NCBI GenBank assembly: GCA_039586795.1
Contig: JBDHJS010000001.1
Location: 48,507-112,506 of the forward strand
Reading direction: 5' to 3'
DNA from: Gemmatimonadota bacterium
GTDB taxonomy: Bacteria > Gemmatimonadota > Gemmatimonadetes > Palauibacterales > KS3-K002
DNA length: 64,000 nucleotides
Under the pieces are notes generated by a model that saw only the letters and a list, made by a program, of their open reading frames with translations, was not told the origin of the DNA and ran no database searches. The position numbers and the translations under genes were made by a program. Shown piece by piece: positions 21,734 to 56,808 of the stretch. Each line of letters starts with the position of its first letter. The first letter of the stretch is position 1.

Positions 21734-21736
21734 TTG

Positions 21737-21852: not shown

Positions 21853-21881
21853 CTCCCTACCCTTCACCCCCTACGCCCTAC
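21846..21881 (-). repeat. right arm of inverted repeat; GTAG-repeat element 3' of the phosphoribosyltransferase gene
   Basis: CCCCCTACTCCCTACCCTTCACCCCCTACGCCC is the reverse complement of the 21737-21776 arm; abuts the stop codon at 21878. Confidence 0.55.
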
Positions 21882-22426: not shown

Positions 22427-22594
22427 GCTCGCTCCTATTGTTAGAATGAAGTCGAAGATTGCCGGTTTGTAAGAGGCCAGTCAACAGATACGAAATACCC
22501 TCCCCCTGTTGGAGCGCTCGAGCATCCACTATTTTGCAGGTGTCTTCGGTGTCTCTTCGCGACACGATCTTGTAGGGGACGGGAGAGTGGTGTT

Positions 22595-27377: not shown

Positions 27378-27698
27378 CTATCGGGGCACGAGTTCCACGA
27401 ACACTTCCATGACCCCACCGCACACGGCGGGGCTAAATGACAGGTAGTCGTCTGTGAGATCTACGCGAACCAATTTGGGCGCGCCAGTGGCGATCACTTC
27501 CTGCGCCGCGGCCAAAACCTCCGCTTCGCCGCAGCCGCCGCCGATCGTTCCGATCAGAGTGCCGTCCCCTCCGATGAGCATCTTGCTGCCGGTATCCCGC
27601 GGTGTCGAACCTTTCACGCGGACGACTGTCGCCAGAGCGACGTTTCGGTCGGTTTCGGTCCCGGCTATGAGCGCTTCATAGATCTCGCGATCATCCAT
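27378..27698 (-). CDS. XdhC/CoxI-family N-terminal domain protein (stand-alone)
   Basis: Matches the XdhC_CoxI N-domain (ATVVRVKGSTPRDTGSKMLIGGDGTLIGTIGGGCGE) but lacks the Rossmann C-domain. Confidence 0.65.
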   Translation of the reverse strand: MDDREIYEALIAGTETDRNVALATVVRVKGSTPRDTGSKMLIGGDGTLIGTIGGGCGEAEVLAAAQEVIATGAPKLVRVDLTDDYLSFSPAVCGGVMEVFVELVPR

Positions 27699-28526: not shown

Positions 28527-29110
28527 TAGCGATCCCTCACATAGCGGTCGTAGTCGTCGGGTGTGTCCACGTCGGCAAGTACACCTGGATCGTCGATCTC
28601 GACGCCCACCGATCGGTCCGCATGGCGGCGAACCACGGTCCGAGCGCCTTCCGGAAGATCCTCGTCGAGCAGCTCGCTGAACAGCGAGGCGTCGAAAATG
28701 ACCGGGTGGCCGTGGCGTCCCTGATGGACGGGCCTGACGATGGGCGCGCCGCCTGTCTCAAATGCCTGGATCAACGCCGTCACGGTTGCGGGCCGGACAA
28801 GCGGGTGATCGACCGGGAGGACGACGGCAGCCGCGGCGGTCTCATCCACCGCTCTCAGCCCGGCACGCAAAGAGTCGATCTGCTGGGTGCCGGAGCCTCC
28901 GCCCCAGGTGGTATGTGCGGAGCCCTCAGGAACCAGTCCGGCAATCGCCGGCTCGTCCGGGTTGAGCACGACGACCACCTGCGCGCACCCTCCTTCGACC
29001 AGCGTGCGCACAGCGCGCTGCAAGAAAGTCTCGTTGTCTACAGGCAGCGATGCCTTCGGCCGGCCCATACGCTCCGAGCGGCCGCCGGTCAGGATGATAC
29101 CGACGATCAT
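28526..29110 (-). CDS. molybdenum cofactor nucleotidyltransferase (MocA/MobA-like)
   Basis: ILTGGRSERMGRPKA nucleotide-binding motif; start overlaps the xdhC stop. Confidence 0.7.
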   Translation of the reverse strand: MIVGIILTGGRSERMGRPKASLPVDNETFLQRAVRTLVEGGCAQVVVVLNPDEPAIAGLVPEGSAHTTWGGGSGTQQIDSLRAGLRAVDETAAAAVVLPVDHPLVRPATVTALIQAFETGGAPIVRPVHQGRHGHPVIFDASLFSELLDEDLPEGARTVVRRHADRSVGVEIDDPGVLADVDTPDDYDRYVRDR

Positions 29111-30267: not shown

Positions 30268-31665
30268 TCAGCGGCCGAGCGCCGTCAGCATCTCCTCGAC
30301 CGAGGCGATCTTGACCCGCGGGCGGCCCTGCTGGGCGCCGTTCGCGTCTTCCAGGTCCTTTATCCGCTGCCAATCCTGCCAGGTCACGAGATCGGGCTGC
30401 GCCTGACGGACGAAGCTCTCCGTGGCCGCCGGATCTGCGTTCGCCGGCTCGAGGACCCTACCCTTCGCCACGTCCTCCAGCATGCACTCGACGGTCTCTA
30501 CGGCGCATGCCTTGTTCGTGCCGATCACGCCGGACGGCCCGCGCTTGATCCAGCCGGCGACATAGAGGCCCGGCACGGGTTCGCCGGTCTCGGTGTCGGT
30601 GACACGGCCGTTCTGGTTGGGGATCACACCCCAACTATCATGGAAGGGCACATCGGGCACGGCGACACCGCGGTAGCCGACCGAACGAAAGACGATATCG
30701 ACATCGATCTCCTCGGTTTCGTCGGTCGCCCTTGGCCTCAGCGAACCGTCGTCGCTCTTGTACAACTCGTTCTTGACGATCTTCATGTTGCCGACGCCGC
30801 CCGCTCCGTCGTCGTGGAGCTCGACGGGCGAGACGAGGAAGCGCATGTGGAGCTTCTTGGGCTTTCCGGCGGCCTCGGCGCCGACGAAAGCGTTGAGGAT
30901 GTCGATCTTCTTCAGATCTTCCTTGGACGCGGACTCGAACTGCTCGGCGCTTAACGCATCGAGCTCGATCTCGTCCGCCACGACTTCGAGGTCGGCTCCG
31001 GCGAGCTCGCCCAGCTCCTTGAGCTCGGGATTGGTGAACTTGGCCTGGAGCGGTCCCCGGCGACCGAGGATATAGACTTCTTTTATGTTCGAGTTGGCGA
31101 GCGCCTCTAGGGCATGGTCGGCGATGTCCGTGGTCACCAGCTCGTCCCGGGTCCGACACAGAATGCGGGCAACATCGGCGGCGACGTTGCCGACGCCAAC
31201 GACGGCAGCCTTCTCAACCGACAGATCGAATTCGTAATCCTTGTAGTCAGGGTGGCCGTTGTACCAGGCGACGAACTCGGTCGCGGGGTGACTACGATGG
31301 AGATCCTCGCCCGGGATCCCCATCAAGCGATCGGTTTGGGCGCCGGTGGTGAAGCAGACCTCGTGGTAGTGGCTCTGGAGATCGGCGACCGTGATGTCTT
31401 TGCCGACGTCGACGTTTCCGAAGAACCGGAACCCCGGGTTCGCGGCGATCTTCTCGTAGACCCGCGTGACGTTCTTAATCTTCTCGTGGTCGGGGGCCAC
31501 GCCGAACCGGACCAGCCCGAATGGGACCGGTAGACGGTCATACATGTCGACCTGAACCGAGACATCCTGTTGCTTGAAGAGCTTCTCGGCGGCGTAGAAG
31601 CCGGCGGGTCCGGAGCCGACGATCGCCACACGTATAGGTTGAGACTCGCTGCCCAGCTGGGTCAT
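30268..31665 (-). CDS. fprA: NADPH:adrenodoxin/ferredoxin oxidoreductase, FprA family
   Basis: End-to-end similarity to mycobacterial FprA (IAIVGSGPAGFYAA, GNVDVG, VGYRGVAVPD, GWIKRGPSGVIGTNK); start at internal Met with AGGAGG RBS, verified as CAT at 31663-31665. Confidence 0.85.
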   Translation of the reverse strand: MTQLGSESQPIRVAIVGSGPAGFYAAEKLFKQQDVSVQVDMYDRLPVPFGLVRFGVAPDHEKIKNVTRVYEKIAANPGFRFFGNVDVGKDITVADLQSHYHEVCFTTGAQTDRLMGIPGEDLHRSHPATEFVAWYNGHPDYKDYEFDLSVEKAAVVGVGNVAADVARILCRTRDELVTTDIADHALEALANSNIKEVYILGRRGPLQAKFTNPELKELGELAGADLEVVADEIELDALSAEQFESASKEDLKKIDILNAFVGAEAAGKPKKLHMRFLVSPVELHDDGAGGVGNMKIVKNELYKSDDGSLRPRATDETEEIDVDIVFRSVGYRGVAVPDVPFHDSWGVIPNQNGRVTDTETGEPVPGLYVAGWIKRGPSGVIGTNKACAVETVECMLEDVAKGRVLEPANADPAATESFVRQAQPDLVTWQDWQRIKDLEDANGAQQGRPRVKIASVEEMLTALGR

Positions 31666-31830
31666 CCGATGCGCCTCCTGAGGGCTGAAAAGGGACTTGT
31701 CGCCGCGAGGATCGGCGCCGAAATGATAAGCTACGAGGGGCCAGCGGGCGACCCCGTTGCCGCCAGCCCGGCCCTTCCCTAGCATTCCTTCGCCCTACCA
31801 CCATCACCCAGCGAACCGGAGGCCCGCACC

Positions 31831-33285: not shown

Positions 33286-34410
33286 GTGAGGCGCAGAGCG
33301 GTCTGGGCGGGCGTCGGTACTGCTGCGTTGGTGCTGGTTTATTTCCTGGCGTGGCCGGTGCCGATCGATCCGGTGGAGTGGGAGGCGCCGGTGAACCCGG
33401 GGTATACAGGCGCGTTTGAGGTTAACGAGAGGTTGGCGCAGGTCGAGACGTTCTCGATTGGGGATAATGTTGGGCCGGAGGCGGTGGCGGTCGATGGTGA
33501 AGGACGTGTTTACGTCTCGACGAAAGACGGGTGGATCGTGCGGTTGCAGTCGGATGGGTCAGCGGCGGAGAACTGGGCGAATACCGACGGCCGACCGCTG
33601 GGGATGGAGTTTGACGCCGCCGGCAACCTGATCGTCGCCGACGCCCATCACGGTTTGCTTTCGGTCGCGCCAGACGGAAGCGTCAGCTTGCTGGTGATGG
33701 AGGCCGACGGGATACCGATCCGTTTCGCCAACGATCTGGACGTCGCGCCCGACGGCCGGATCTACTTCACGGACTCGTCCACCAAGTTTGCGCCCATCGA
33801 TTGGGAAGGAACCACAGCGGCGGCGTTACTCGAGCTGATGGAACATGGCGGCAATGGACGCCTGCTGGTCTACGACCCCGAGATCGGGAGCGCCACGGCG
33901 GTGATCGACGGCCTCAGTTACGCCAATGGAGTCGCGGTCGCTCACGATGGATCGTTCGTGCTGGTGAACGACATGGGGAGTTACAGAGTGCTTCGCGTCT
34001 GGCTCAGAGGACCCTACACGGGATCCAGCGAACCACTCATCGAGGAGCTGCCCGGTTTCCCGGACAACCTGTCCCGTGGCCTGGACGGCCGGTACTGGGT
34101 GGCGTTCATCTCGCCGCGCAATTCGCTTGTCGACGCGCTCTCTGACAATCCATTCCTTCGCAAAGTGGTGCAGCGACTCCCCGCGTTCCTTCGACCCGCC
34201 GCGACCCACTACGGTCATATCATCGCCGTGGATCATAGCGGTCGAGTGATAGAAGACCTGCAAGACCCGAGGGGAGCGCTACCGATGATCAGCGGCGTGC
34301 GCGAGACCGAAGACTTCCTTTGGTTGGGGAATGTGGAGTCACCGGTGGTGGGACGGATCAATAAGACGCAGGTTCAATGCTGCAAAGCAGCTCTCACGGA
34401 CCACGAGTAG
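33286..34410 (+). CDS. strictosidine synthase-like / SMP-30-gluconolactonase-LRE family beta-propeller protein
   Basis: N-terminal TM/signal, repeated GPE/A.DG motifs (GPEAVAVDGEGRVY, PLGMEFDAAGNLIVADA, NDLDVAPDGRIYFTDS). Confidence 0.6.
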   Translation: MRRRAVWAGVGTAALVLVYFLAWPVPIDPVEWEAPVNPGYTGAFEVNERLAQVETFSIGDNVGPEAVAVDGEGRVYVSTKDGWIVRLQSDGSAAENWANTDGRPLGMEFDAAGNLIVADAHHGLLSVAPDGSVSLLVMEADGIPIRFANDLDVAPDGRIYFTDSSTKFAPIDWEGTTAAALLELMEHGGNGRLLVYDPEIGSATAVIDGLSYANGVAVAHDGSFVLVNDMGSYRVLRVWLRGPYTGSSEPLIEELPGFPDNLSRGLDGRYWVAFISPRNSLVDALSDNPFLRKVVQRLPAFLRPAATHYGHIIAVDHSGRVIEDLQDPRGALPMISGVRETEDFLWLGNVESPVVGRINKTQVQCCKAALTDHE

Positions 34411-34442
34411 CCTACGAAAACAAACCGCTAGGAGAACGACCG

Positions 34443-35537
34443 ATGCCCGGAATCACACGACGCTCCTTTTTCAGGAATAGCATCCTAGCTGGCGCCGGCG
34501 CCGCCGTCTGGCAGAGACTCACCCCATCCGCCCAGGCGAGCGCGCCCGCCCCGACGTTTGGCCGAAAGTCAGCCACCACGCCGATGGTCGTCACAAGCCA
34601 TCCGAACGACACCGGGCGCCGGGCGCTGGAGATCGCCTGGGAGATCCTTGCGGATGGTGGTACTGCGCTGGATGCGGTCGAGAAGGCGACGAACCACATC
34701 GAGTTGGACCCGAACGACTGGAGCGTAGGGTATGGTGGCCTTCCCAACGAGCGCGGTGTGGTACAACTCGACGCTTCGATCATGGACGGCAAAACATACA
34801 GCGCCGGATCGGTCGCATCTCTGGAGAACATCGTGCATCCATCATCGGTGGCGCGACTGGTTATGGAGCGCACCGACCACGTGATGTTGGTGGGCCCCGG
34901 CGCTCTCGAGTTCGCCACGTCCTGGGGCTTCGAGGAGCAAGAGCTGCTCACAGAACGGGCGCGGGAGCGTTGGCTGCAGTGGCGTGAAGAACACAGCGAG
35001 CGGGACGACTACGGTCCGCCCGACCATGTCAAGACGGGCAGCGACGAGCGCGGAGCTTCCCTCCCCGGTAGCGATCCCGAGACGTATGGGACGGTTAACG
35101 TGCTGGCGGTCGACAACAACGGTGATGTCGCCGGGATCACGAGCACCAGCGGTTTGTCGTGGAAGATCCACGGCCGTATCGGCGATTCGCCAATCATCGG
35201 CGCCGGTCTCTATGTGGACAACGATGTCGGCGCCGCCGGCGCCACCGGTCGCGGCGAAGACGTGATCAAGGCCTGCTCGTCGTACTACATCGTCATGCGG
35301 ATGCGTGAGGGTCGGTCACCGCAGGAGGCGTGCGAAGACGCGCTCCACTACATCGCCGACCGCTACCGGTCGGTGGGGCTGGACTACCTCCCGGGCGAGA
35401 AGTTCGTGGCAATGAACCGGGACGGCGAGGTAGGCTGCGCCCAGACGTTCGGGCGGAATGCCCCGAGGATGACGGTGGCAGGCGGATCCGGGATCGAGGT
35501 TTATTCCGGGGAGACGGTCTTCAGCCGGGAAGACTGA
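34443..35537 (+). CDS. Tat-exported asparaginase-2 family Ntn hydrolase (isoaspartyl peptidase/glycosylasparaginase-like)
   Basis: Twin-arginine signal (TRRSFFRNSILAGAGAAVW) from the ATG at 34443 with AGGAGAA RBS; Ntn-hydrolase motifs GTVNVLAVDNNGDVAGITSTSG and GAGLYVDNDVGAAGATGRGE. Confidence 0.75.
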   Translation: MPGITRRSFFRNSILAGAGAAVWQRLTPSAQASAPAPTFGRKSATTPMVVTSHPNDTGRRALEIAWEILADGGTALDAVEKATNHIELDPNDWSVGYGGLPNERGVVQLDASIMDGKTYSAGSVASLENIVHPSSVARLVMERTDHVMLVGPGALEFATSWGFEEQELLTERARERWLQWREEHSERDDYGPPDHVKTGSDERGASLPGSDPETYGTVNVLAVDNNGDVAGITSTSGLSWKIHGRIGDSPIIGAGLYVDNDVGAAGATGRGEDVIKACSSYYIVMRMREGRSPQEACEDALHYIADRYRSVGLDYLPGEKFVAMNRDGEVGCAQTFGRNAPRMTVAGGSGIEVYSGETVFSRED

Positions 35538-35539
35538 TG

Positions 35540-35610
35540 ATTCGGGGATTCGCTCAGCCAATCGCCGAAGCCGCGAATCTGGTGACCCCCGAATCGCTCC
35601 AATCCCTCCG
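35540..35610. repeat. CGAATCCCC/GGGGATTCG motif cluster (ATTCGGGGATTCGC ... CCCCCGAATCGC)
   Basis: Same motif family as 18546-18592, 46262-46402 and 60420-60460. Confidence 0.4.
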
Positions 35611-35660
35611 AGTAGACGTGGCGGGCCGTATATAGTTATATTTAGATATAGGCATTATAA

Positions 35661-35900
35661 ATGACAGTAACCCATAGAGAGATAAACACTTTGCCTACAT
35701 ACGATTACGTTTGCCTTGAGTGTGGCCGGCAGTTCGACGTGAGGGCCTCGATTTCCGCCTACTCGGCCGGTCTTTCGCCCCACTGCCCGGACTGTGGATC
35801 GGACAACGCGGATCGGAGGTTCTCCTCAGTGAACGTGCTCACGGGGTCGCAGGAGTCGGCAGGCTCGCCGCCGAATTGCGGTCCATCGGGCTTCAGTTGA
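35661..35900 (+). CDS. FmdB-family zinc-ribbon putative regulatory protein
   Basis: LPTYDYVCLECG...CPDCGS: the FmdB N-terminus (M-P-T-Y-x-Y-x-C-x-x-CG); the real start is probably the TTG at 35691 (GAGAG RBS), the ATG at 35661 being an upstream alternative. Confidence 0.65.
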   Translation: MTVTHREINTLPTYDYVCLECGRQFDVRASISAYSAGLSPHCPDCGSDNADRRFSSVNVLTGSQESAGSPPNCGPSGFS

Positions 35901-36179
35901 GTGAACTGAAGCCGCCCAGGTTGGGCGGAGATCGAGCATGTCACGGGTCAGCCCTGTGGCTGGCCCGTCGTGCATCTGCGATGCGGCGCCGGGGTAGTTG
36001 GATCTCAGCCTCGTGTGAGGTATCCTATTAGCATCATCAGTCGCGCTGACCGAGCTGTTCCGTAGCCCATCACCGAGGTGGGCGGCTTGGGAAAGAGCAG
36101 CCGCCGCTCCAGACTCCGAACTCAAAGGCGAGCAGACCAAGGTGCGGGCAAGCGCACGAGTGGCCGTCGGAGGTTCAGA

Positions 36180-36551
36180 ATGCCGATAGAGACGCGGATC
36201 GACTCAGCCGCGGGCTTGAGGACGCACATAGTCAGCGGAGAGATGGACTTTGACGCTCTCTCTTCCACGCTCGAGGGCGTCTATTCGGACCCGGACTTTC
36301 TTCCCGACCTCAACGTGTTGTGGGATCTTCGAGACGCGATCCTGACGGTGTTTTCTTCCGGGGACGTCAGCCGAGTTGTTGACGTGGTGAAGGGGAACTG
36401 GACGGGGGCCCGGGCGGCGCTTGTGGTTGGGCGCGACGCCGACTTTGGAATGGCACGAATGTACGAGCTGCAGCACGATACATCGTCATCGGGCGAAGTG
36501 CGTGTGTTCCGAGATTTCGAAGAGGCGACGGCATGGGTAATGGAGAAGTAG
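36180..36551 (+). CDS. small protein of unknown function, paralog A (possible divergent STAS/anti-sigma-antagonist-like fold)
   Basis: Start at internal Met with GGAGG RBS (MPIETRID); homologous to 36992..37414 along its whole length; C-terminal GMARMYEL...VRVFRDFEEATAWV. Confidence 0.55.
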   Translation: MPIETRIDSAAGLRTHIVSGEMDFDALSSTLEGVYSDPDFLPDLNVLWDLRDAILTVFSSGDVSRVVDVVKGNWTGARAALVVGRDADFGMARMYELQHDTSSSGEVRVFRDFEEATAWVMEK

Positions 36552-36991
36552 CTCGGATGCGCAGTTTCCGTCTTCTTGCACTCGTTCCAGTATCGCTATT
36601 CCTGTTCGGCGTGCCAGCGATCTTCTCCAAACAACAGCTCAACCGCTCACGCACCACTCAGATGCAAGGATCGACGATTGGCGTACGATGAGAAGCTAGC
36701 TCAACGGATCCGGGACGTTCTCGGTGACCGGAGGCCTGATCTACAGAGTACGGCCAGTCAAACGTCGAGCGAGCGACGAACGTCACCCACGAGATGGCAA
36801 ACGCGAGGCCGAGGTAAAGCCAAACCTGTTTGGAGATACGGTCTTCCTCTTTGATCATCGCTCGTACGTGAAAACGGACGACTGGCGTTCCCGCCGCTCG
36901 AATCTCCCTGCTGCTTGACGCTAAGCTCAAGCTCGGCTTACGATTATGGGTTAATATGACCTGCCGGCGCCATCCATAGGACGCCGATCGG

Positions 36992-37414
36992 TTGACTCGA
37001 AAGCCCCAGGATACGAGCGGAAGCACTGTGCCGTTCAGTTACGAGATTGACAGGGGCCGCGACTTCGTCTCGATAGTCGCAAGCGGCAAGATCACGACCG
37101 AAGAAGCGTTGGCGACTTTCGACGCGATCGTCGGTGAACCCGGCTTTCATCCCGGAATGAAGATCCTGAGCGATCACCGGGACCTGGAGACGGTAGTACC
37201 GATAGCGTTCATAAAGGCGTGGATCAGCCGTATCGAGGAGGCCGGCAAGCTGTTTCGGGGGACGCGGGCGGCGCTGGTCGAGTCGGGGACCGTGAGATAC
37301 GGAATGGCGCGCATGGCATCGATTCTCACAGAGCCGACGGCGATCGAGATGCGCGTGTTTCGCGACGTCGAGGAAGCCCGGAACTGGCTCGAGTCACCGG
37401 CGGTCTTGTTATAA
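36992..37414 (+). CDS. small protein of unknown function, paralog B
   Basis: Shares a clear collinear motif pattern with paralog A (..IVASG.., GMARMASI...MRVFRDVEEARNWL); stop overlaps the RBS of the molybdoenzyme small subunit. Confidence 0.55.
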   Translation: MTRKPQDTSGSTVPFSYEIDRGRDFVSIVASGKITTEEALATFDAIVGEPGFHPGMKILSDHRDLETVVPIAFIKAWISRIEEAGKLFRGTRAALVESGTVRYGMARMASILTEPTAIEMRVFRDVEEARNWLESPAVLL

Positions 37415-37425
37415 GAGGCATCGAT

Positions 37426-37920
37426 TTGATCGAGGCTATAGAACTTACGGTAAACGGAGATACCCGCGAGCTTGGCGTCCCGAGTCATTACACGCTCCTC
37501 GAGACGCTGCGCTATGTGCTGGGGTACACCGGATCCAAACAAGGCTGTGACAAGGGCGACTGCGGAGCCTGCACGGTACTGCTGGACGGAGTACCCACCC
37601 TCTCCTGCATACTCCCAGTCCAGGAAGCGATCGGAAGAGAGATCACAACGATCGAGGGACTAGCAGAAGCCGACGGGCTTCACCCGCTTCAGGATTTCTT
37701 TGATGTCACAGGCGGTGCGCAGTGCGGGTTCTGTACGTCTGGAATCATCATGTCGGCGGCGGCCTTGTTGTCGGAGAACGACGATCCAACGCGAGATGAG
37801 ATTCGGGCGGCGCTGTCCGGGAATCTGTGTCGCTGCACGGGTTACACGAAGATCTTCGAGGCCATCGAGCTAGCCGCGCGCTCGCTACGTGAGAGCGCGG
37901 CGGAGAGTGTGGAATCGTGA
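37426..37920 (+). CDS. (2Fe-2S)-binding small subunit of xanthine dehydrogenase-family molybdoenzyme (CoxS/HcrC-like)
   Basis: CDKGDCGACTV plant-type and CGFCTSG...CRCTGY second 2Fe-2S motifs; TTG start at 37426 with AAGAGG RBS (the in-frame upstream part of the track ORF is unlikely to be translated). Confidence 0.85.
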   Translation: MIEAIELTVNGDTRELGVPSHYTLLETLRYVLGYTGSKQGCDKGDCGACTVLLDGVPTLSCILPVQEAIGREITTIEGLAEADGLHPLQDFFDVTGGAQCGFCTSGIIMSAAALLSENDDPTRDEIRAALSGNLCRCTGYTKIFEAIELAARSLRESAAESVES

Positions 37921-40349
37921 AGCTTGAGGACTTCCGTGAGAGGCAAGCGGCGGCCGCGCTGAGCGAGGAAGAAATCCGCGCAGCCGTCGAGCGCGAGTTC
38001 CAGGTGATCGGGCGTCGACTGCGCCGAACCGATGGCATCGCCAAGTCCACGGGACGAGCAGTCTACACTGACGACATCACACTCCCTGGGATGCTGCACG
38101 GCAAGATCCTGCGCAGCCCTCACGCACACGCCCGTATCATGTCCATCGACGTATCGAGAGCCCTGCAGCTCGAGGGCGTGCACGCGGTGATCACCGGCAG
38201 CGACATGCCAGAACTTTACGGGATCATTCCGTGGTCACGGGACGAATACGCGCTGTGCGTAGACGTGGTGCGTTACATCGGCGACGGGGTGGCGGCGGTA
38301 GCGGCCATCGACGAAGAGACGGCGAACGCGGCGCTCGACCTAATCGAAGTGGAGTACGAGGTCCTTCCCCACTTTCTGGATCCGAAAGAAGCGCTAACGA
38401 ACGCGGATACGCCGATCCACGAGCCGAAGAAGCCGGGCGAGAACGGGAACATCTCGAAGCGTGTGCAGCTGGAGTTCGGCAGCGTCGATGCGAAGATGGC
38501 GGCGTCGGATGTAGTGGTCAAAGACGATTACTTCTTCGAAGGAACGACGCACACGGCGATCGAACCGCACTGCGCCATCGGCTATTGCGACGCAGGCGGC
38601 AAACTGACGGTTTGGTCGGCCACTCAGGTACCGCACTACCTGCACCGCGAGCTGGCGCGAGTGCTCGATCTGGATGTCGCCAAGGTCAGGGTCGTGCAGC
38701 CACCCATCGGTGGGGCGTTCGGCGGCAAATCGGAGCCGTTCGACCTGGAGTTCTGCGTAGCGAAGCTGGCGATGATCACCGGCCGCCCGGTGAAGATCCT
38801 TTATACTCGCGAGGAGGTATTCTACGCTCACCGCGGTCGGCACCCGATGTTCATGCGTTACGAGACCGGGGCCGACGCCAACGGACGAATCAAGGCCGTG
38901 CACGCGCGGACGATTCTGGACGGTGGCGCCTACTCCTCGTTCGGCCTGGTCACGACGTACTACTCGGGACAGTTGATCACGGCGCCGTACGCGATGGAGT
39001 CGTACCGATTCGACTCGATCCGAGTTTACACGAACAAGCCGTGCTGCGGGCCGAAGCGAGGGCACGGGTCGGTGCAGCCGCGGTTCGCGATCGAGGTCCA
39101 GCTGGACAAGATCGCCGAACAGCTCGAGATGGATCCGATCGAACTTCGTCGTCGCAACATCATCGGCTCGGGCTCGCGGACCGTGAACGAGTTTCGCATC
39201 ACGTCCAACGGCTTCGCGGAGTGTCTGGCCGAAGTCGAGAAAGCATCGGACTGGAAGAACAAGCACCGACGTTTGCCTTACGGCCGCGGCGTAGGCGTCG
39301 CCGGCTCGTGCTACATCTCCGGAACCAACTATCCGATCTACCCCAACGAAATGCCGCAGTCTGCAGTCCAGCTGCAGGTCGACCGGTCGGGGAGGGTCGC
39401 TGTGTTCAGTGGCGCATCCGAGATCGGCCAGGGCTCCGACTCGATGCTCGCCTACATCGTGTCAGAGGAACTGGGTGTTCCCCTCGACTACGTTCGAATA
39501 CTGTCGGCGGACACCGATCTGACGCCCGTGGATCTGGGCGCCTACTCGTCGCGGGTCACGTTCATGAACGGCAACGCTTGCATCGACGCGGCCCGCAAGA
39601 TCAAGACGCAAGTACAGCAAGCGGTTGCCGATCAATGGCTCTGCAAGCCCAAGCATGTGATGCTGGTGGGCGGCTGGGCGTTCTACGGCCTGGACACCGA
39701 GACAAAGATGCCGATCTCGGAGGCGTTCAACCTGGCCGAGGCGAAATACGGCGCCCTGGGCGCTACCGGGTCCTATAACACGCCGAAGGATATCCACGGC
39801 GAGTATCGGGGCGGGACGATCGGCTCGTCGCCGGCGTACTCCTTCACGGCCCACGTGGCCGAAGTGGAGGTCGATCCGGAGACCGGATTCGTCGAGGTGC
39901 AGAAGATCTGGATCGCCCACGATTGCGGCCGGGCGCTGAACCCGGTGCTGGTGGAAGGCCAGATGGAAGGCTCGGCCTACATGGGCTTTGCCGAGGCGAT
40001 CATGGAGGCGCATGTCTTCAAGGAGACGGGTCTGCACAACGCGCCTTCGCTGCTCGACTACAAGATCCCGACCAGCCTGGACACACCCGAGATGCGCTCG
40101 CTCATCGTCGAGTCGATCGATCCAGAGGGCCCCTACGGGGCAAAGGAAGCAGGGGAAGGCCCGCTGCATCCGTCCATACCGGCTATCGCGAACGCGATCT
40201 ACGATGCGGTGGGCGTGCGCATGGACCGCATGCCGTTCGCACCGCCAGCCGTCTGGAAGGCGATACGAGCACGCGCCGAACGGGAGCGCTCAGGTGGTTT
40301 GACGCCGTGGAAGAGAGACGACGCGTCTCTCGCAGCGGCGGGAGATTAG
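37917..40349 (+). CDS. molybdopterin-binding large subunit of xanthine dehydrogenase-family enzyme (CoxL/HcrA-like)
   Basis: GTG start overlapping the upstream stop (GTGA); GGAFGGK motif (PPIGGAFGGKSEPFD) and XDH-family domain order; 810 aa. Confidence 0.9.
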   Translation: MKLEDFRERQAAAALSEEEIRAAVEREFQVIGRRLRRTDGIAKSTGRAVYTDDITLPGMLHGKILRSPHAHARIMSIDVSRALQLEGVHAVITGSDMPELYGIIPWSRDEYALCVDVVRYIGDGVAAVAAIDEETANAALDLIEVEYEVLPHFLDPKEALTNADTPIHEPKKPGENGNISKRVQLEFGSVDAKMAASDVVVKDDYFFEGTTHTAIEPHCAIGYCDAGGKLTVWSATQVPHYLHRELARVLDLDVAKVRVVQPPIGGAFGGKSEPFDLEFCVAKLAMITGRPVKILYTREEVFYAHRGRHPMFMRYETGADANGRIKAVHARTILDGGAYSSFGLVTTYYSGQLITAPYAMESYRFDSIRVYTNKPCCGPKRGHGSVQPRFAIEVQLDKIAEQLEMDPIELRRRNIIGSGSRTVNEFRITSNGFAECLAEVEKASDWKNKHRRLPYGRGVGVAGSCYISGTNYPIYPNEMPQSAVQLQVDRSGRVAVFSGASEIGQGSDSMLAYIVSEELGVPLDYVRILSADTDLTPVDLGAYSSRVTFMNGNACIDAARKIKTQVQQAVADQWLCKPKHVMLVGGWAFYGLDTETKMPISEAFNLAEAKYGALGATGSYNTPKDIHGEYRGGTIGSSPAYSFTAHVAEVEVDPETGFVEVQKIWIAHDCGRALNPVLVEGQMEGSAYMGFAEAIMEAHVFKETGLHNAPSLLDYKIPTSLDTPEMRSLIVESIDPEGPYGAKEAGEGPLHPSIPAIANAIYDAVGVRMDRMPFAPPAVWKAIRARAERERSGGLTPWKRDDASLAAAGD

Positions 40350-40353
40350 CATC

Positions 40354-41358
40354 GTGCTCAGGCTCCACCCTTATCACTACCATCGCCCGGCCACCCTGAA
40401 GGAGGCCCTGGGTCTGCTGAAGCAGCACACCGGCGATGTGATGGCGATCGCGGGTGGCACGGACCTGGTCCCCAACATGAAGCACAGGCTCTTCACGCCC
40501 AGCCACCTTGTCGCGTTGAAAGACCTCGCGGAGCTTCAGGGGATCGAAGAGCGGGACGGTGAACTGGTCATTGGCGCCGCGGAGAGCCTGACCAGCGTGG
40601 CGACGCATCCGCTGGTGAAGAAGCACCTCCCCGCGCTGGCGGATGCCGCCGCCGCCATAGCCCATCCGATGATTCGCAATCAGGGCACGATCGGCGGCAA
40701 CATCTGCCTGGACACGCGGTGCACGTACTACAACCAGACGCATTTCTGGCGAAAGGCGCTGGGATACTGCCTGAAGAAGGACGGCGACGTCTGCCACGTG
40801 GTGAAGGGTGGCACCAAGTGCGTCGCCGCGCACTCGGCGGACACACCGCCGATCCTCATGGCGTTGGGCGCATCGATCGACATCGCCTCGGCGGATCGGG
40901 AGCGGAAGTTGCCGCTGGAAAGTTTCTTTGTCGCTGATGGTATTTGGAACAAAATGATGGCGCAGTACGAGCTAGTGACTCGCGTTCGCGTACCTCTCCC
41001 GCCGCCAGGGCAGCGTGCGGTCTATGTGAAGGTTCGGGAGCGCAATGCAGTGGACTTCCCGCTACTCAGCATCGGGTTGGCGGTCGAACTGGACGAGACC
41101 GACTCGTTGGCGCAGAGAATCTCGCTGGTAGTCGCCGCGCTTGGCGCCAAGCCTCGGGTCATCGGCGGCCTCGACAAGATCACGGACGGAAAGAAGCTCA
41201 CGTCTGATGTGATCGAGGAGATCGCACAACAGGCGTTCCGTCAGTGCAATCCCCTCGAGAATATCATCGTCGAGCTGGAGTGGCGGCGCGCTATGGTTCC
41301 GGTCTATGTGCGCCGCGCTTTCAAGCAGCTGCTCGCTCAGCCGCGGGCCGTCGCGTAG
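40354..41358 (+). CDS. FAD-binding medium subunit of XDH-family molybdoenzyme with Cys-rich insertion (HcrB-like putative [4Fe-4S] loop)
   Basis: AGGTDL FAD motif; insertion CLDTRCTYYNQTHFWRKALGYCLKKDGDVCHVVKGGTKC containing C-x16-C-x8-C-x9-C; GTG start with GGAGA RBS. Confidence 0.85.
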   Translation: MLRLHPYHYHRPATLKEALGLLKQHTGDVMAIAGGTDLVPNMKHRLFTPSHLVALKDLAELQGIEERDGELVIGAAESLTSVATHPLVKKHLPALADAAAAIAHPMIRNQGTIGGNICLDTRCTYYNQTHFWRKALGYCLKKDGDVCHVVKGGTKCVAAHSADTPPILMALGASIDIASADRERKLPLESFFVADGIWNKMMAQYELVTRVRVPLPPPGQRAVYVKVRERNAVDFPLLSIGLAVELDETDSLAQRISLVVAALGAKPRVIGGLDKITDGKKLTSDVIEEIAQQAFRQCNPLENIIVELEWRRAMVPVYVRRAFKQLLAQPRAVA

Positions 41359-42348
41359 CTAGCCCCCGACGACGGACTCCGCGAAGATCTCGACCGGCTC
41401 GACTATCGCATCCATCGGACTGAACTTCCATACTAGCACTTCGTCATCGCGTTCGTGCGCGTTCGACGTGATGATCCGACCCGGCATCCTCAGCCGGAAA
41501 TGGATCTCCGTGCTGCCCGCAACGTTCAGACCGTCCAGCTTGTCATCGATGAAGTCGCCAAGCCTGTCCGCCTCGTCATCGTAGATCTCGGCGAGCATGG
41601 CCCTGAGGAATTCTTCATCAGCGTCCGGGTAGCTGCGGCGCACGATGCGGGTCGCCTGCCTGGCTGTCCGGTCGACAACCTGCTCGAGCATCCGATCCTC
41701 CTCCTCGCCGCTGAGCTCGAATAGGCCCTGGTCGATAGCGGCCCACGCCTGCCCTCTAGCAGTACCTATGATCTCAGCGACGGCCTCATCCGAGAGATCC
41801 GGGTATTCCGTCACGACTCGCGCTTCGACGAGGCTCATCATGTATTCGACGAGAGCATCGAGGGCGTTCTCCCATTCGAAGCTCTCTCGATAGGTGAATG
41901 ACGTCGCGTCGCCGACACGGCCTGTCTCGACCTTTACCGTGTTCCAGAAGTGAACTTCGCCCAGCCTGACGTACCCGACTTTCGTGTCTACGTTGGCCCT
42001 GGTGGCGCCGGCAAAGTGCATGCTACGAGTGACATCTTCCCAGCCGGACAGGTTCCTGACACGAGTCTGGCGTGTGAACACCTCGGTGGTGTCCGTGCCG
42101 TCCACTTCGATCTCGTGGGCCCAACCGCGCTGGCCCGTGACGACACCCGTGACTTCTTGAAACTCGCCGATCGAGATTTCGAATCCCGGGCTGTCGGCAT
42201 CTGAAACAACCATCTTCTCGCTGCGAACACCACTGCCATCGGCATTCAGGGTGGTCTCTACCGTGTACTCGATGCAGCCGCCCAAGCCGAAGGCCGCAAA
42301 CGCCAACCCGGCAAGACCGACACGTTTTCCGCTCTTTATCCACTTCAT
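41359..42348 (-). CDS. hypothetical lipoprotein downstream of the ECF sigma/anti-sigma pair
   Basis: Start at internal Met (MKWIKSGKRV) with GAGGTGA RBS, verified as CAT at 42346-42348; lipobox GLGGC. Confidence 0.55.
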   Translation of the reverse strand: MKWIKSGKRVGLAGLAFAAFGLGGCIEYTVETTLNADGSGVRSEKMVVSDADSPGFEISIGEFQEVTGVVTGQRGWAHEIEVDGTDTTEVFTRQTRVRNLSGWEDVTRSMHFAGATRANVDTKVGYVRLGEVHFWNTVKVETGRVGDATSFTYRESFEWENALDALVEYMMSLVEARVVTEYPDLSDEAVAEIIGTARGQAWAAIDQGLFELSGEEEDRMLEQVVDRTARQATRIVRRSYPDADEEFLRAMLAEIYDDEADRLGDFIDDKLDGLNVAGSTEIHFRLRMPGRIITSNAHERDDEVLVWKFSPMDAIVEPVEIFAESVVGG

Positions 42349-42386
42349 GGTCCTCACCTCTCTATGACCAGTACACTCTCGACGTC

Positions 42387-43169
42387 TCACGACCGGACGC
42401 TTGCATCAGATAGCGCAAGCAGTCGAGCCACGGGAATCTGCAACTCTGGATCGAGCGCCAGGGCGTCCAGCAGACGAACCAACTCTGCCACCTGCACACC
42501 ATCCGCACCGCGCAGCTCATCCAGTGCTGTACTCCGGCCGGCAAGCGCCCAGAAAGGGGCACCTGCGAGCAGGCTTTCCAGCCTGGCAGCATCGACGATG
42601 GTCGTGCTGGGAGGCAACCGCTCCAGCATGCTAATCAGTTCAGCGACGCTCACGCTTTCGCGCCGGGAAAGCGTACGCTCCCACGCTCTTCGCCCCACCA
42701 ACCCGGTCGCCACGGACGATGTTGTGACCTCCAGGCTGGCGAGCCGCTGCTCGTGCTCGGCAATTCGTTGCACGAGGAGCTCTTCGCGTCCACGCAGCTC
42801 GCCCAGCTCACCGAGCAAGAAGCCAGTGGCGACAAGGAGCAGCACGGAAGCGGCGGCGAGGGACGGTGCCAACCAGCGCGATGATCCCCAGCCTCGCGGG
42901 CGCGTGATATGTCGTGCCTCCTGAATCGCGATCTCGGCCTGAACCGAATCCCACATCGACGCTACATAGACATCGGGCACCTCCACCTCGAGATCCTCTA
43001 GAGACGGCAAGGCGAGGTGTTCGTGCATGCGCAGAATCGCGTCGCACTCGACGCAGGCCTCGGCGTGAAGCTGAAGCTGGGCCATGCCGTCCTCGCCAAG
43101 TCTTCCCTGTTTGAGCGAGTCCAGCTGGTCCTGGAAAACCTCACAGTCGATGTTCTTCTTCACGTTCAA
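42387..43169 (-). CDS. membrane anti-sigma factor (zinc-finger HxxxCxxC type)
   Basis: HAEACVECDAIL zinc motif, central TM (AAASVLLLVATGFLL); start overlaps the stop of the sigma gene by 4 nt. Confidence 0.65.
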   Translation of the reverse strand: MNVKKNIDCEVFQDQLDSLKQGRLGEDGMAQLQLHAEACVECDAILRMHEHLALPSLEDLEVEVPDVYVASMWDSVQAEIAIQEARHITRPRGWGSSRWLAPSLAAASVLLLVATGFLLGELGELRGREELLVQRIAEHEQRLASLEVTTSSVATGLVGRRAWERTLSRRESVSVAELISMLERLPPSTTIVDAARLESLLAGAPFWALAGRSTALDELRGADGVQVAELVRLLDALALDPELQIPVARLLALSDASVRS

Positions 43170-43792
43170 TTCTCCGTGCTGCTGAGCGCCGCGGCCAGCC
43201 GCTTGCGCGCGAAATGTAGCGTTGCCCTGAGCGTGCCATTCTTGATTCCGAGCTCGCGCGCCACGTCCTTCTGCTCTCTCTGCTCCATATCAACCCTCAC
43301 GAAAACCTGGCGCTGGCTCTCGCTCAACTCGTCGAGCGCGACCAACAGGCGCTGGTGGAACTCGCGACGCTCGAGCTCCTCTTCTGGCCCAATATCTACG
43401 GAGGCGATCTCAAGTATGCCCATTTGCTCGTCATCGTTGGGGGTCATTTCGCGTTTGACCCAAGCTTTGCGCAGGTGACTGAGACAGCCGTTCCGGTGGA
43501 CGGTGAGGAGCCAGCCGCGGAAGGAGCGATCCGGGTCGTAGCTGTCGATCCGGCTGTGGACCCTGACCCACGTTTCCTGTGTCAGGTCGCGTGCCCACTC
43601 CCAATCCGCGGTGTAGCGGTAGGCGACGGCGATCAGCGTCCGGGTCAGCGACTCGACCAGGGTCCGAAATGCCCGCTGATCTCCGCCCTTCACGGCTACC
43701 GCGAGTGCTCTCAGCTGCTTCTCGTCCAAGCGCGATTTCCTCCGTCGTATTCGCGCCAATGCGCTTCCTCTTGGTATACGCAACAACCACAA
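43166..43792 (-). CDS. RNA polymerase sigma-70 factor, ECF subfamily
   Basis: Region 2 (DLTQETWVRVH) and region 4 HTH (QRQVFVRVDMEQREQKDVARELGIKNGTLRATLHFARKRL). Confidence 0.85.
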   Translation of the reverse strand: MWLLRIPRGSALARIRRRKSRLDEKQLRALAVAVKGGDQRAFRTLVESLTRTLIAVAYRYTADWEWARDLTQETWVRVHSRIDSYDPDRSFRGWLLTVHRNGCLSHLRKAWVKREMTPNDDEQMGILEIASVDIGPEEELERREFHQRLLVALDELSESQRQVFVRVDMEQREQKDVARELGIKNGTLRATLHFARKRLAAALSSTEN

Positions 43793-43885
43793 GATGTGCT
43801 TATGGGAAAGAATCGGAAATCGTGATTGGAAATAGGAACTGTTATCGGGATTCGCGAGACCGGGATCCTGAACTGGGGAATAAAA

Positions 43886-43919
43886 GACGCCGCCGGCCTT
43901 CCCTCAGCCCGGCGGCGTC
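43886..43919 (-). terminator. rho-independent terminator of the sigma/anti-sigma/PDZ operon
   Basis: 11-bp perfect stem GACGCCGCCGG/CCGGCGGCGTC, 12-nt loop, followed on the minus strand by TTTTATTCC; 20 nt after the PDZ gene stop. Confidence 0.55.
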
Positions 43920-43938
43920 TCTTCTTGTTGATTCCCGA

Positions 43939-44892
43939 CTAAGGTTCGCGGGTGCGTATTCCGAAGGCGCCGCCGAAGAAGTTCTCAGGGACCTTTCCGG
44001 TCACGGTTCGCGACCGTTTCTGCCGGTAGATCTGGAACGTGACCTCTTCATCTTCCTCGTAGGAACGGAGGATGCGCATCGCGTGACTAGGGCTCTGTAC
44101 CGCGCGGCCGTCGATCGCCTGAATCACGTCGCCGGCAATGAGGCCCAACTCACTGTCTTCGGGAGCGCTGAGGACCAGCAGGCCTTCGTCTGTGCCAAAG
44201 TACTCGCCGAGATCCGGATTGAGCTCGACAAGCTCTAATCCCGGGACGCGCTCGCCGATGGCGATGGCGAAATTGCGGGGCGCCTGGATCTGAACCTCGG
44301 GAAGTTCGCGCAGGCGGTATGACAGCGTGCGGAACCGATCGCTCATCGAGTCGTTGAATTCGCTGGTCCAGCCGATGGCGTAACCCTCAAAATCACCAAC
44401 GACCAACTCCGCGGTGTGCTCGTCCCCGTCACGCCGGTACTTGACGGTAACCGTGTCGCCCATCTCCAGCTCCCGGGCAAGCGCCGATAGCCGCTGTCCC
44501 GGACCGGAGAGCTCCTGACCCGGAGCGCCTTCCAGGTCGTAGTCCTCGAATCCCTCGAGCACGCTGTTGCCGTCGAGCTCGATGATGATATCGCCGGCGC
44601 GAATGCCTGCCTTGTCGGCGGGGCCATCCTCGCTCACGTCATCGATCAACGCGCCGTAACGGTCGGTCTCCGGGTTGGCTTCGGTGTGGATGTAGACGCC
44701 CAGCCGAGCCCGCTGCCCGAAGTAGAAGACGTTGCGCCCGGCATCGCCCAGGCGGGGAGCGACATAAACGCCGCCCACGTTGACGCGGGGGCAAACGCAG
44801 TCCTGATCTCTGTCTTCATCCTGCGCTTGCGCCGGCACCGACGTCGCCGTGGCTATCAGCGCTCCCACGAGTAGAAACTGTACCCACCTCAT
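43939..44892 (-). CDS. secreted PDZ-domain protein (two PDZ domains)
   Basis: Signal peptide from the internal Met (MRWVQFLL) with AGGAGG RBS, verified as CAT at 44890-44892; PDZ signatures GIRAGDIIIELDGNSV and GLIAGDVIQAIDGRAV. Confidence 0.7.
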   Translation of the reverse strand: MRWVQFLLVGALIATATSVPAQAQDEDRDQDCVCPRVNVGGVYVAPRLGDAGRNVFYFGQRARLGVYIHTEANPETDRYGALIDDVSEDGPADKAGIRAGDIIIELDGNSVLEGFEDYDLEGAPGQELSGPGQRLSALARELEMGDTVTVKYRRDGDEHTAELVVGDFEGYAIGWTSEFNDSMSDRFRTLSYRLRELPEVQIQAPRNFAIAIGERVPGLELVELNPDLGEYFGTDEGLLVLSAPEDSELGLIAGDVIQAIDGRAVQSPSHAMRILRSYEEDEEVTFQIYRQKRSRTVTGKVPENFFGGAFGIRTREP

Positions 44893-44951
44893 CTCGTTCT
44901 GCCTCCTGTCATGTATGCGCTTCATACTTGACCCTGTGTTCGTCTCTCGGC

Positions 44952-45635
44952 CTATCGCCAGACCGAAGTGGATGTTTGAACCGGTGTGTCCACCGGTCGC
45001 GCTTCACCTAACTGGATGCCGACAAGGGTCTCAAGCGTCGCAGTGCGCTCGTTCCACAGATTGACAAGGACGCGGCGGTCAACGCCGAGCTGGCGGCTTT
45101 CATGGATCATGCCGTCGAGAATCAGGATCCGATCCTCGAGCGCGGAAACGGCGATCGCCGTCGGCGCGTCGTAGACGCGGTACTGCGTCGGGTACGTTTG
45201 GAGAAGTGTTTCAAGCTCACGCGAGCGGTTGATGTACAGCTCGAGGTCGGGAGTCGCTTCGGCCACCCGGCCCTCCTCAACCGGGGCAACGGTTCCGTCC
45301 ACGACGGGACCCGGTGTAATCGGTTCGCCGCCACGCAGCAAGATGAAGCCGGTCAACGCGGCTGCTGCAGCGAGCCCAACCGTTCCGGCGCCCCACCAGC
45401 GACGCTTTCGCCGCTGGCTCACATCGGCGGCAACGTTCGTCCACAAGTCTCGCGGCGGCGTGAACGCGGGTAGCGCCTTCAGTTCCGCCCTGACTCTGAA
45501 GAGGCGCTCCAGTTCGCGCCGGCAATCCTCGCACGACTCCAGATGCGTCTGAGCATGCGCCGACCCCTCACCATCTCTCTCGGCCAGCAGTTCGTGCATC
45601 TCCAGATGTCGCAAGTTTACCATCAGTCCAACCAC
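44952..45635 (-). CDS. membrane anti-sigma factor (zinc-finger HxxxCxxC type)
   Basis: HLESCEDCRREL motif, TM (TVGLAAAAALTGFILL); immediately downstream of and overlapping the ECF sigma gene. Confidence 0.6.
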   Translation of the reverse strand: MVGLMVNLRHLEMHELLAERDGEGSAHAQTHLESCEDCRRELERLFRVRAELKALPAFTPPRDLWTNVAADVSQRRKRRWWGAGTVGLAAAAALTGFILLRGGEPITPGPVVDGTVAPVEEGRVAEATPDLELYINRSRELETLLQTYPTQYRVYDAPTAIAVSALEDRILILDGMIHESRQLGVDRRVLVNLWNERTATLETLVGIQLGEARPVDTPVQTSTSVWR

Positions 45636-46159
45636 TCCCGCAGACGTTTGTGCGCTCTCGATAGCTGTGACTTCGAGAAGCTGGCTGTCTTGCCCATCAT
45701 CTCGCCAATCTCTTCGTGCGTGTAGCCTTCCACGTCATGCAGCCAGAGCACCGAACGGGTCACCGGAGTCAAACGCCCCAGGGCGGCCTCCAGATCGATC
45801 GGTCCCGTCGGCTCCGGTGGATTCGTGCCGATCAATTCCAAGCTAATCACCTCGCCAGAGACCGTGCGTCGCGAACGGTTCCGTTCGCGACGCAGCAGCA
45901 TGAGCGCCTTGCTGACCGCCACCTGGCGGATCCAGCCCCAGAGGGAGCCGTCACCGCGATAGCGCCTGATGGACCGACACACCTCGACAAACGTGTCCTG
46001 CAGCACATCTTCCGCATCCTCTTCGTTGCCACAGATTCGGCGCCCCAGGTTGTAGACCTGGGTTCGATAGGCGCGGTAGACGCTCTCCAGGGCCTCGAGG
46101 TCCCCAGCCCGGGCGCGCGCCACCAGGGCATCGGCCAGCACTAAAGCATCGCTGCTCAT
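45623..46159 (-). CDS. RNA polymerase sigma-70 factor, ECF subfamily
   Basis: Region 2 (DVLQDTFVEV) and region 4 (VLWLHDVEGYTHEEIGEMMGKTASFSKSQLSRAHKRL). Confidence 0.85.
   Translation of the reverse strand: MSSDALVLADALVARARAGDLEALESVYRAYRTQVYNLGRRICGNEEDAEDVLQDTFVEVCRSIRRYRGDGSLWGWIRQVAVSKALMLLRRERNRSRRTVSGEVISLELIGTNPPEPTGPIDLEAALGRLTPVTRSVLWLHDVEGYTHEEIGEMMGKTASFSKSQLSRAHKRLREWLD

Positions 46160-54390: not shown

Positions 54391-56808
<2,418 letters not shown>

Follow-up and report, generated by a model that had tools for sequence, protein, structure and literature searches.

A second clade of HcrCAB-type molybdoenzymes in Gemmatimonadota, with a predicted role in the reductive dehydroxylation of hydroxy-aroyl-CoA esters

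The 4-hydroxybenzoyl-coenzyme A (CoA) reductase (4-HBCR) of Thauera aromatica, a molybdoenzyme that belongs to the xanthine oxidase (XO) family and is encoded by hcrC, hcrA and hcrB, is to our knowledge the sole biochemically characterised HcrB-type enzyme, and only one other enzyme of the XO family is known to work reductively. A loop of its beta subunit, the subunit that carries flavin adenine dinucleotide (FAD), binds a [4Fe-4S] cluster (PMC11760930). The urolithin C dehydroxylase of Enterocloster (Ucdh/UcdCFO) is a second reductive phenol dehydroxylase of the family, with 4-HBCR as its closest characterised relative (PMC12771579), and its FAD subunit has no [4Fe-4S] loop (PMC11760930); by its description, it differs in acting on a substrate that is not a CoA ester and in having NAD(P)H as the proposed donor, and is ~33% identical to 4-HBCR. 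An extra [4Fe-4S] cluster is also present in the oxidative Escherichia coli PaoABC (PMC13404670), and the statement in a first-pass annotation of the DNA described here, that such a cluster makes 4-HBCR unique in its family, is therefore outdated. Here we describe an hcrCAB-like operon at positions 37426-41358 of a 64,000-nt stretch of a Gemmatimonadota contig (hereafter the window). Judged from its sequence, the encoded enzyme represents a second HcrCAB clade of predicted function, which is distinct from the Thauera/Magnetospirillum clade and extends across many Gemmatimonadota species. It seems reasonably probable that the enzyme is a ferredoxin-driven reductive dehydroxylase of a hydroxy-aroyl-CoA.

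The three open reading frames (ORFs) of the operon (Table 1) are co-directional and lie in the order small-large-medium, which is the hcrC-hcrA-hcrB order of T. aromatica and not the medium-small-large (M-S-L) order of the coxMSL carbon monoxide dehydrogenases (CODH), as the first-pass annotation had reported. The TTG start of the hcrC-like gene lies nine bases behind an AAGAGG ribosome-binding motif (37412-37417) and is separated by 11 nt from the end of the upstream gene, and the hcrC-like and hcrA-like genes share 4 bp. The hcrCAB genes of Thauera and Magnetospirillum are likewise ordered C-A-B with 4-bp overlaps. A scan of 35400-41700 for promoters and terminators yielded nothing exceeding chance. 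For the identical genes of the contig that holds the window, the Pfam domains on record are Fer2/Fer2_2 in gamma, Ald_Xan_dh_C/MoCoBD_1/MoCoBD_2 in alpha and FAD_binding_5/CO_deh_flav_C in beta. The enzyme thus has the three separate subunits of Thauera 4-HBCR, a large one for molybdenum-molybdopterin cytosine dinucleotide (Mo-MCD), a medium one for FAD and a small one for two [2Fe-2S] clusters, with the same domains and cofactor motifs. In gamma, Cys 41/46/49/61 and 100/103/135/137 make up two canonical [2Fe-2S] motifs. In the XO family a Gln contacts the Mo-oxo group and a Glu is catalytic; both are retained in alpha, where Q237 and E747 align with Q214 and E726 of HcrA. No twin-arginine translocation (Tat) signal region was found at the N-terminus of gamma, which begins directly at the Fe-S domain, and the enzyme is predicted to reside in the cytoplasm.

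Table 1. Features of the operon and of its surroundings (positions within the window)
Feature	Position	Strand	Details
hcrC-like small (gamma) subunit	37426..37920	+	164 aa; two [2Fe-2S] clusters (predicted); TTG start
hcrA-like large (alpha) subunit	37917..40349	+	810 aa; MCD Mo site; GTG start
hcrB-like medium (beta) subunit	40354..41358	+	334 aa; FAD and predicted [4Fe-4S]; GTG start
Beta insertion loop, residues 118-160	40705..40833	+	Cys118, 123, 139, 147, 156; predicted [4Fe-4S] site
XdhC-type Mo-cofactor insertion chaperone, split	27378-27698 (N-terminal XdhC_CoxI domain) and 27714-28526 (Rossmann domain)	-	PF02625, PF13478
MocA/MobA-like nucleotidyltransferase	28526-29110	-	PF12804 NTP_transf_3, E 2e-37
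FprA-type NADPH:ferredoxin reductase	30268-31785	-	386 bits to M. tuberculosis FprA, 1LQT
Zn_ribbon_8 ORF	35661-35900	+	Pfam match
Small protein, first paralogue	36078-36551	+	without Pfam match
SpoIIAA-like small protein, second paralogue	36992-37414	+	PF11964

To assign the enzyme to a family, each subunit was searched against the sequences of all solved structures (PDB) and against the NCBIfam models with their equivalog cut-offs. The best match for every subunit was the corresponding chain of Thauera 4-HBCR: alpha matched 1RM6_A with 597 bits (next, CoxL 8UEM_A with 303 bits), beta matched 1RM6_B with 187 bits in one stretch (next, CutM with 111 bits in two stretches), and gamma matched 1RM6_C with 163 bits (next best 146 bits). 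The best NCBIfam models were TIGR03194 for alpha (865 against a cut-off of 994.55; next family 574), TIGR03195 for beta (273 against 404.55) and TIGR03193 for gamma (181 against 257.8). The distance to the next match or family was wide for alpha and beta. With 1RM6 and TIGR03193/4/5 first for all subunits, the earlier identification of an hcrCAB-like molybdoenzyme with an HcrB-type loop is borne out.

The loop itself lies in GGNICLDTRCTYYNQTHFWRKALGYCLKKDGDVCHVVKGGTKC of the beta subunit. HMMER aligned beta residues 5-326 to HcrB 5-320 in one stretch, placing the loop without a gap on HcrB 117-159 (window numbering = HcrB + 1), and C123/C139/C147/C156 fell on C122/C138/C146/C155 of 1RM6_B, reportedly the [4Fe-4S] ligands of HcrB (Unciuleac et al. 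2004), as the first-pass annotation had expected. CutM of CODH matched beta in two separate stretches, with the break at residues 118/163, which argues that the ~40-residue, four-Cys insertion in the FAD subunit, a hallmark of 4-HBCR, is real. The motif had been written C-x16-C-x8-C-x9-C; the match to the HcrB spacing stands, but 16, 8 and 9 are the differences in position, which are identical in the two proteins, and the true spacers are x15, x7 and x8. In an alignment of 128 homologues (31-77% identity), the invariant beta columns were G35, G115, N116, C123, C139, C147, C156 and D163; the four Cys are the sole invariant residues of the loop, and C118 varies. Of the 150 clusters (50% identity) nearest to the window beta, 140 had the four-Cys motif C-x13-18-C-x6-9-C-x7-10-C, for which the HcrB spacing was by far the most frequent, and 107 had a fifth, upstream Cys in addition.

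Two AlphaFold models of beta were compared. In the first, built from 49 Gemmatimonadota-only sequences, residues 121-160 had a predicted local distance difference test (pLDDT) score below 50; in the second, built from the diverse 128-sequence alignment, the mean pLDDT was 97, the predicted template-modelling score (pTM) was 0.94 and the loop reached 97-98. The disordered loop of the first model was therefore rejected as an artefact of a shallow alignment. In a Foldseek search with the second model, 1RM6_B was the top match (template-modelling (TM) scores 0.93/0.96; root-mean-square deviation 1.5 Å over 330 columns), followed by the CODH medium subunit. Given an adequate alignment, the loop is predicted to be folded, which answers the check on loop disorder that had been proposed, and it probably holds a [4Fe-4S] cluster.

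Neighbour-joining trees on simple distances were built for beta and for alpha. The Gemmatimonadota clade and the Thauera/Magnetospirillum/Rhodoferax clade were separate in both, which places the window enzyme outside the clade of the characterised 4-HBCR; in the beta tree each clade was monophyletic within one HcrB-type radiation, and E. coli PaoB lay outside it. Alpha did not group with xanthine dehydrogenases (XDH), CODH or aldehyde oxidoreductases; a firm grouping with ordinary aldehyde oxidoreductases or XDH had been named as evidence against the first-pass reading. The Rhodoferax alpha was left out as a reference because its gene looks frameshifted: in this metagenome-assembled genome (locus L091, 5601-8001), hcrA has no intact ORF between hcrC and hcrB and only its last 102 codons are in frame, likely an assembly frameshift or a pseudogene.

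The same trees and scores bear on whether the window encodes an ordinary oxidative member of the XO family, of the PaoABC, XDH or aerobic CODH type, that only resembles 4-HBCR. Generic family similarity speaks for it, since these families appear further down the match lists, and PaoB and the medium subunit of a Methylobacillus aldehyde oxidase (5Y6Q_B) align across the loop region. However, the scores were far under the respective cut-offs for PaoABC (262 against 1180 for PaoC, NF041671; 140 against 322, NF008514), for CODH (314 against 991 for CoxL, TIGR02416) and for bacterial XDH (574 against 780 for XdhA, NF043082; 158 against 310, NF043083; 160 against 217, NF043084). PaoABC (PDB 5G5G) resembles the window enzyme as a heterotrimer of the XO family that uses an MCD cofactor and bears, on an insertion of the FAD subunit, an additional [4Fe-4S] cluster (predicted in the window), and the annotated product of paoB is 'FAD-binding Fe-S subunit'. 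It differs in being oxidative and periplasmic (Tat), in its order small-medium-large and in an identity to the window subunits of 28-30% (28% between PaoC and alpha). The middle Cys of PaoB are placed differently and fail to align, PaoB is an outsider to the HcrB-type radiation, and gamma is without the Tat-signal extension (164 aa against 229 aa in PaoA). CoxMSL and CutMSL share the three-subunit Mo/FAD/[2Fe-2S] architecture but have no beta insertion, and their gene order is another one. At the position of the CODH active-site loop, alpha reads PCCGPKRGHG, like PPCGAMRGHG of HcrA and unlike a CoxL motif. An ordinary oxidative identity is therefore very improbable and, as far as sequence can tell, effectively refuted.

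The extent of the clade was determined in a search with beta of 1.84 billion cluster representatives (50% identity). The HcrB-type branch comprised 887 clusters at E<1e-30, with Planctomycetota and KSB1 among its named members, and more than 150 clusters scored nearer to the window beta than Thauera HcrB does (196 bits for the 150th match, against 187 bits for Thauera HcrB in the structure search). Homologues at 55-89% beta identity were essentially all from Gemmatimonadota (Gemmatimonadales, Longimicrobiales, Palauibacter and Kutchimonas). When genomes were scanned, one for each species, the loop motif turned up at no fewer than 579 loci; the top 80, which were used for the neighbourhood counts below, were all from Gemmatimonadota except three records labelled otherwise. 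The proteins that NCBI names 4-HBCR came from Thauera, Magnetospirillum, Rhodoferax, Aquabacterium, Sedimenticola and others, and the best 120 matches per search among them had identities to Thauera of no less than 66% (beta) and 74% (alpha). Gemmatimonadota homologues are called 'FAD binding domain-containing protein' by NCBI, because they miss the 4-HBCR cut-offs, and '4-hydroxybenzoyl-CoA reductase subunit beta' by JGI. The first-pass annotation had considered an uncharacterised Fe-S-containing XDH subfamily. The enzyme is no oddity of its genome: the window adds one member to a clade that spans many Gemmatimonadota and is already annotated automatically, and it introduces no new principle.

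Three cluster representatives (P0121, P0123 and P0124) branched next to the Gemmatimonadota clade in the beta tree, as its direct sisters, and the loci of two of them were informative (loci of homologous operons carry L-numbers). At L093 (P0124, GCA_009712145.1; 73-9984), genes for ECH, TetR, BcrC, BcrB, BcrA, BcrD and then hcrC, hcrA and hcrB are all co-directional. The ECH protein has a dienoyl-CoA hydratase (dch-like) as its best match; BcrC (428 against a cut-off of 421) and BcrB (686 against 487) scored above their cut-offs, and BcrA (554 against 578) and BcrD (312.3 against 312.85) scored just below. Adjacency of bcrCBAD and hcrCAB is the canonical setting of 4-HBCR, and the hcrCAB genes of L093 sit exactly where 4-HBCR would feed benzoyl-CoA reductase. 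At L092 (P0123, contig JABWCM01, labelled Myxococcota; 1-9996), had (426 against 339, above the cut-off), oah (506 against 464, above), ECH, TetR and two HGD-D genes, from the family of the BcrB/BcrC type, adjoin hcrCAB, and a MocA-like ORF follows hcrB.

The alpha subunits of these two loci were 67% identical to that of the window and 39-41% identical to that of Thauera, and they formed one clade with the Gemmatimonadota sequences in 100/100 neighbour-joining bootstraps (78/100 for Gemmatimonadota alone). Of 353 alpha columns that were at least 95% conserved in 38 Gemmatimonadota sequences, 330 were shared by L093 and 329 by L092 (93%), against 206 by Thauera. At the 62 columns that distinguish the Gemmatimonadota from the Thauera clade, the Gemmatimonadota residue was found at all 62 in L093 and at 59 in L092. 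Both enzymes carry the same Cys loop. The sharing of conserved and of essentially all clade-specific residues argues for one shared specificity, and the Gemmatimonadota and L092/L093 enzymes look like one isofunctional group. The data suggest that the curated 4-HBCR models miss a second functional clade. A novel specificity, which had been raised before, has no positive evidence in its favour, and the nearest informative relatives have benzoyl-CoA-pathway genes as neighbours, at one locus with bcrCBAD immediately before hcrCAB.

In the reductive route proposed for the window enzyme, low-potential electrons, most likely from ferredoxin, would enter at a surface [4Fe-4S] cluster in the four-Cys insertion of beta and would pass to the FAD of the same subunit, to the two [2Fe-2S] clusters of gamma and to the Mo-MCD of alpha. 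There, a para-hydroxylated aroyl-CoA, most probably 4-hydroxybenzoyl-CoA, would lose its hydroxyl group to give benzoyl-CoA. That 4-hydroxybenzoyl-CoA is the specific substrate is probable, to a somewhat lesser degree than a hydroxy-aroyl-CoA in general.

Several observations weigh against this proposal. All three 4-HBCR equivalog cut-offs were missed, and identity to the only characterised enzyme, that of Thauera, was 40% in alpha and 34-35% in beta. The missed cut-offs were rejected as an argument against 4-HBCR function, because the L093 proteins miss them by the same amounts (scores of 843, 271 and 189 at the sister locus). The 62 alpha positions fixed differently between the Gemmatimonadota and Thauera clades include G746, P749, H751 and S753, which flank the catalytic Glu, and others at which an aromatic residue common to all sampled sequences of the Thauera clade has given way to a different one (W454 to P, F468 to R, F732 to S), so the active-site pocket may differ from that of the Thauera enzyme.

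The genomic setting weighs in the same direction. The operon lies among housekeeping genes, including gyrA, gyrB, rho, recF, peptidases, extracytoplasmic function (ECF) sigma modules and transporters, unlike the operons of L092 and L093, which lie inside benzoyl-CoA-pathway clusters and whose function is predicted too. No gene for an aryl-CoA ligase or benzoyl-CoA reductase was found in the 64-kb window, nor was a ferredoxin gene, with no CxxCxxCxxxCP motif in any frame. Over 10 kb to each side of the operon, the 80 Gemmatimonadota loci yielded neither a homologue of benzoyl-CoA reductase nor a close one of aryl-CoA ligases, only two distant AMP-binding matches with ~25% identity. Linkage to pathway genes was seen at the sister loci L092 and L093. 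In a survey of more than 400 Gemmatimonadota genomes, benzoyl-CoA degradation genes occurred only in genomes from permafrost and marine sediment (PMC10581226), unlike the operon, which occurs in many species of the phylum. Many relatives also have either one gene or a distance above 10 kb between the beta gene and gamma/alpha.

It is conceivable, though rather doubtful, that the Gemmatimonadota clade has kept the architecture and drifted to another substrate or direction. The enzyme would then remove the hydroxyl group from a different phenolic CoA ester or from a free phenolic compound, or it would hydroxylate a (hetero)aroyl-CoA oxidatively, with the [4Fe-4S] cluster as the electron exit to ferredoxin; in both cases it would serve housekeeping or scavenging throughout the phylum, with no connection to the anaerobic catabolism of benzoyl-CoA. 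The wide occurrence of the operon away from benzoyl-CoA reductase and ligase genes in the 80 loci, its housekeeping context, the reported patchiness of benzoyl-CoA degradation in the phylum (PMC10581226) and the fixed differences near the catalytic Glu would fit such a change. A [4Fe-4S] cluster in the FAD subunit does not fix the direction, because the oxidative PaoABC has one. The great size of the HcrB-type family, with so many clusters nearer than Thauera HcrB, and its varied contexts, for example a KSB1 homologue beside a corrinoid methyltransferase system, also speak for it, and an XO-family dehydroxylase acting on a non-CoA phenol is known in Ucdh (PMC12771579). In the literature searched, no paper was found that links 2-furoyl-CoA dehydrogenase, an oxidative aroyl-CoA hydroxylase, to the 4-HBCR family. 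Against a different job stand the residues shared with the L092 and L093 enzymes and an alpha identity of 67%, which usually preserves function, and no finding speaks positively for another substrate. A narrower version, in which the clade is a widely conserved, ferredoxin-coupled molybdoenzyme of new substrate or direction in largely aerobic bacteria, apart from the benzoyl-CoA pathway, appears unlikely; a non-catabolic, ferredoxin-coupled role would explain the housekeeping neighbourhood and the free-standing beta gene of Longimicrobiales.

Nearly all of the 150 nearest clusters of the very large HcrB-type branch (887 clusters) carry the four-Cys loop. The Gemmatimonadota clade lies outside the curated equivalog models, yet its sequences tie it to enzymes whose genes adjoin those of benzoyl-CoA reductase. 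If, as we propose, the clade reduces 4-hydroxybenzoyl-CoA, the curated models under-call the function, KEGG-style annotation in soil and sediment phyla is broadly right, and Gemmatimonadota may join in the anoxic turnover of phenolics. With a different function, the clade would offer an accessible entry to a new reductive or ferredoxin-linked molybdoenzyme activity.

The neighbourhoods of the 80 loci were surveyed with a heuristic ORF caller, based on GC content at third codon positions (GC3), and BLAST clustering, a crude procedure that missed the hcrC of the window. The only conserved neighbours were hcrCAB itself plus an occasional XdhC or MocA gene. Other recurrent neighbours, which gave no hint of a pathway, were a bacilliredoxin-like disulphide isomerase, an AmiA-like protein, a nitroreductase, an aminotransferase, a histidine kinase and an M28 peptidase. 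The hcrCAB genes were contiguous in the seven closest relatives. A single gene of the nitroreductase family or AmiA-like stood between hcrA and hcrB in many Gemmatimonadota (within L008-L080; examples are L084 9436-9996, L034 8995-9996, L011, L023 and L026). Longimicrobium-type genomes had over 10 kb between the hcrB-like gene and any hcrCA, and the hcrB-like gene often followed genes for a PAS histidine kinase and an M28 peptidase; for this enzyme family, it is unusual that the FAD/[4Fe-4S] subunit gene stands alone. The loci of Thauera and Magnetospirillum are arranged MarR-hcrCAB, with or without xdhC, and an AMP-binding ligase gene was nearby in two of the three Thauera-type loci examined (Magnetospirillum and Rhodoferax); the window, unlike these, has neither a MarR regulator beside hcrCAB nor a nearby AMP-binding ligase gene. 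At L007 (1704-9971), ECH-3HCDH-ECH directly precedes hcrCAB and a sodium:solute symporter follows, a layout that resembles the logic of a ring-CoA lower pathway. At L006 (4056-5606), a TetR_C_24 regulator, the type found in L092 and L093, and an ECH gene lie just upstream, with one opposite-strand gene between them and the operon. The neighbours in both loci hint at CoA-ester metabolism.

The maturation genes XdhC and MocA, which had been noticed before, are present 8-10 kb upstream of the operon, XdhC as two ORFs (Table 1). The split of XdhC looks real rather than a sequencing error, because the small ORF was found again in five relatives (cluster c28). The MocA-like gene overlaps the stop of the second XdhC ORF, and its product probably converts the cofactor to its cytosine dinucleotide form; together, the two functions are consistent with a sulfurated MCD cofactor. 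XdhC and/or MocA-type genes adjoin the hcrCAB-like genes in L004, L010, L032, L090, L092, L095 and L097, and those of the window are presumably associated with its operon as well.

Other proposed partners were less constant. The FprA-type ferredoxin reductase is present as described, but its linkage to the operon is kept only in the closest two or three relatives (L003, L004); it is a possible, weakly linked electron supply to the enzyme. The three small putative regulators upstream of hcrC are likewise present, and two of them are paralogues (31% identity, E 2e-15), but apart from the window's contig, L002 was the one locus to have them at this place, which sets them outside the conserved unit. 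The SpoIIAA-like gene is possibly co-transcribed with hcrC. Cytochrome c genes are present in the window; the aerobic lifestyle suggested for the organism is not established, and a close relative is named Candidatus Kutchimonas denitrificans.

In the KSB1 locus L081 (417-6486), an hcrB-like gene (44% identity to that of the window) is followed by genes for a URO-D-type methyltransferase, the RACo corrinoid activase, Met_synt_B12 and a B12-binding protein. This set is a corrinoid methyltransferase or O-demethylase-like system, and it may tie some HcrB-type enzymes to methoxylated aromatics.

Elsewhere in the window, gyrA (22595-25057) and gyrB (54391-56478) are both present, the cumulative GC skew has its minimum at ~20-22 kb (region ~16300-22600), GC content falls to 0.59, and most genes lie on the minus strand at 1-20 kb and on the plus strand at 20-41 kb. 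The skew minimum and the strand switch suggested a replication origin near 20.3 kb, which was rejected: DnaA-box matches showed neither enrichment nor clustering, and neither dnaA nor dnaN was seen. Two Asparaginase_2 (isoaspartyl peptidase / L-asparaginase) paralogues lie at 34377-35537 (+) and 61848-62939 (-). Downstream of hcrB, two proteins without a family match (41359-43169) lie upstream of the first of two ECF sigma factor genes (43166-43792 and 45623-46159, both -), between which a PDZ-domain protein (43939-44925) and an anti-sigma-like protein (44952-45635) are encoded; the ECF block (43166-46159) stays beside hcrB in the closest 4-6 relatives.

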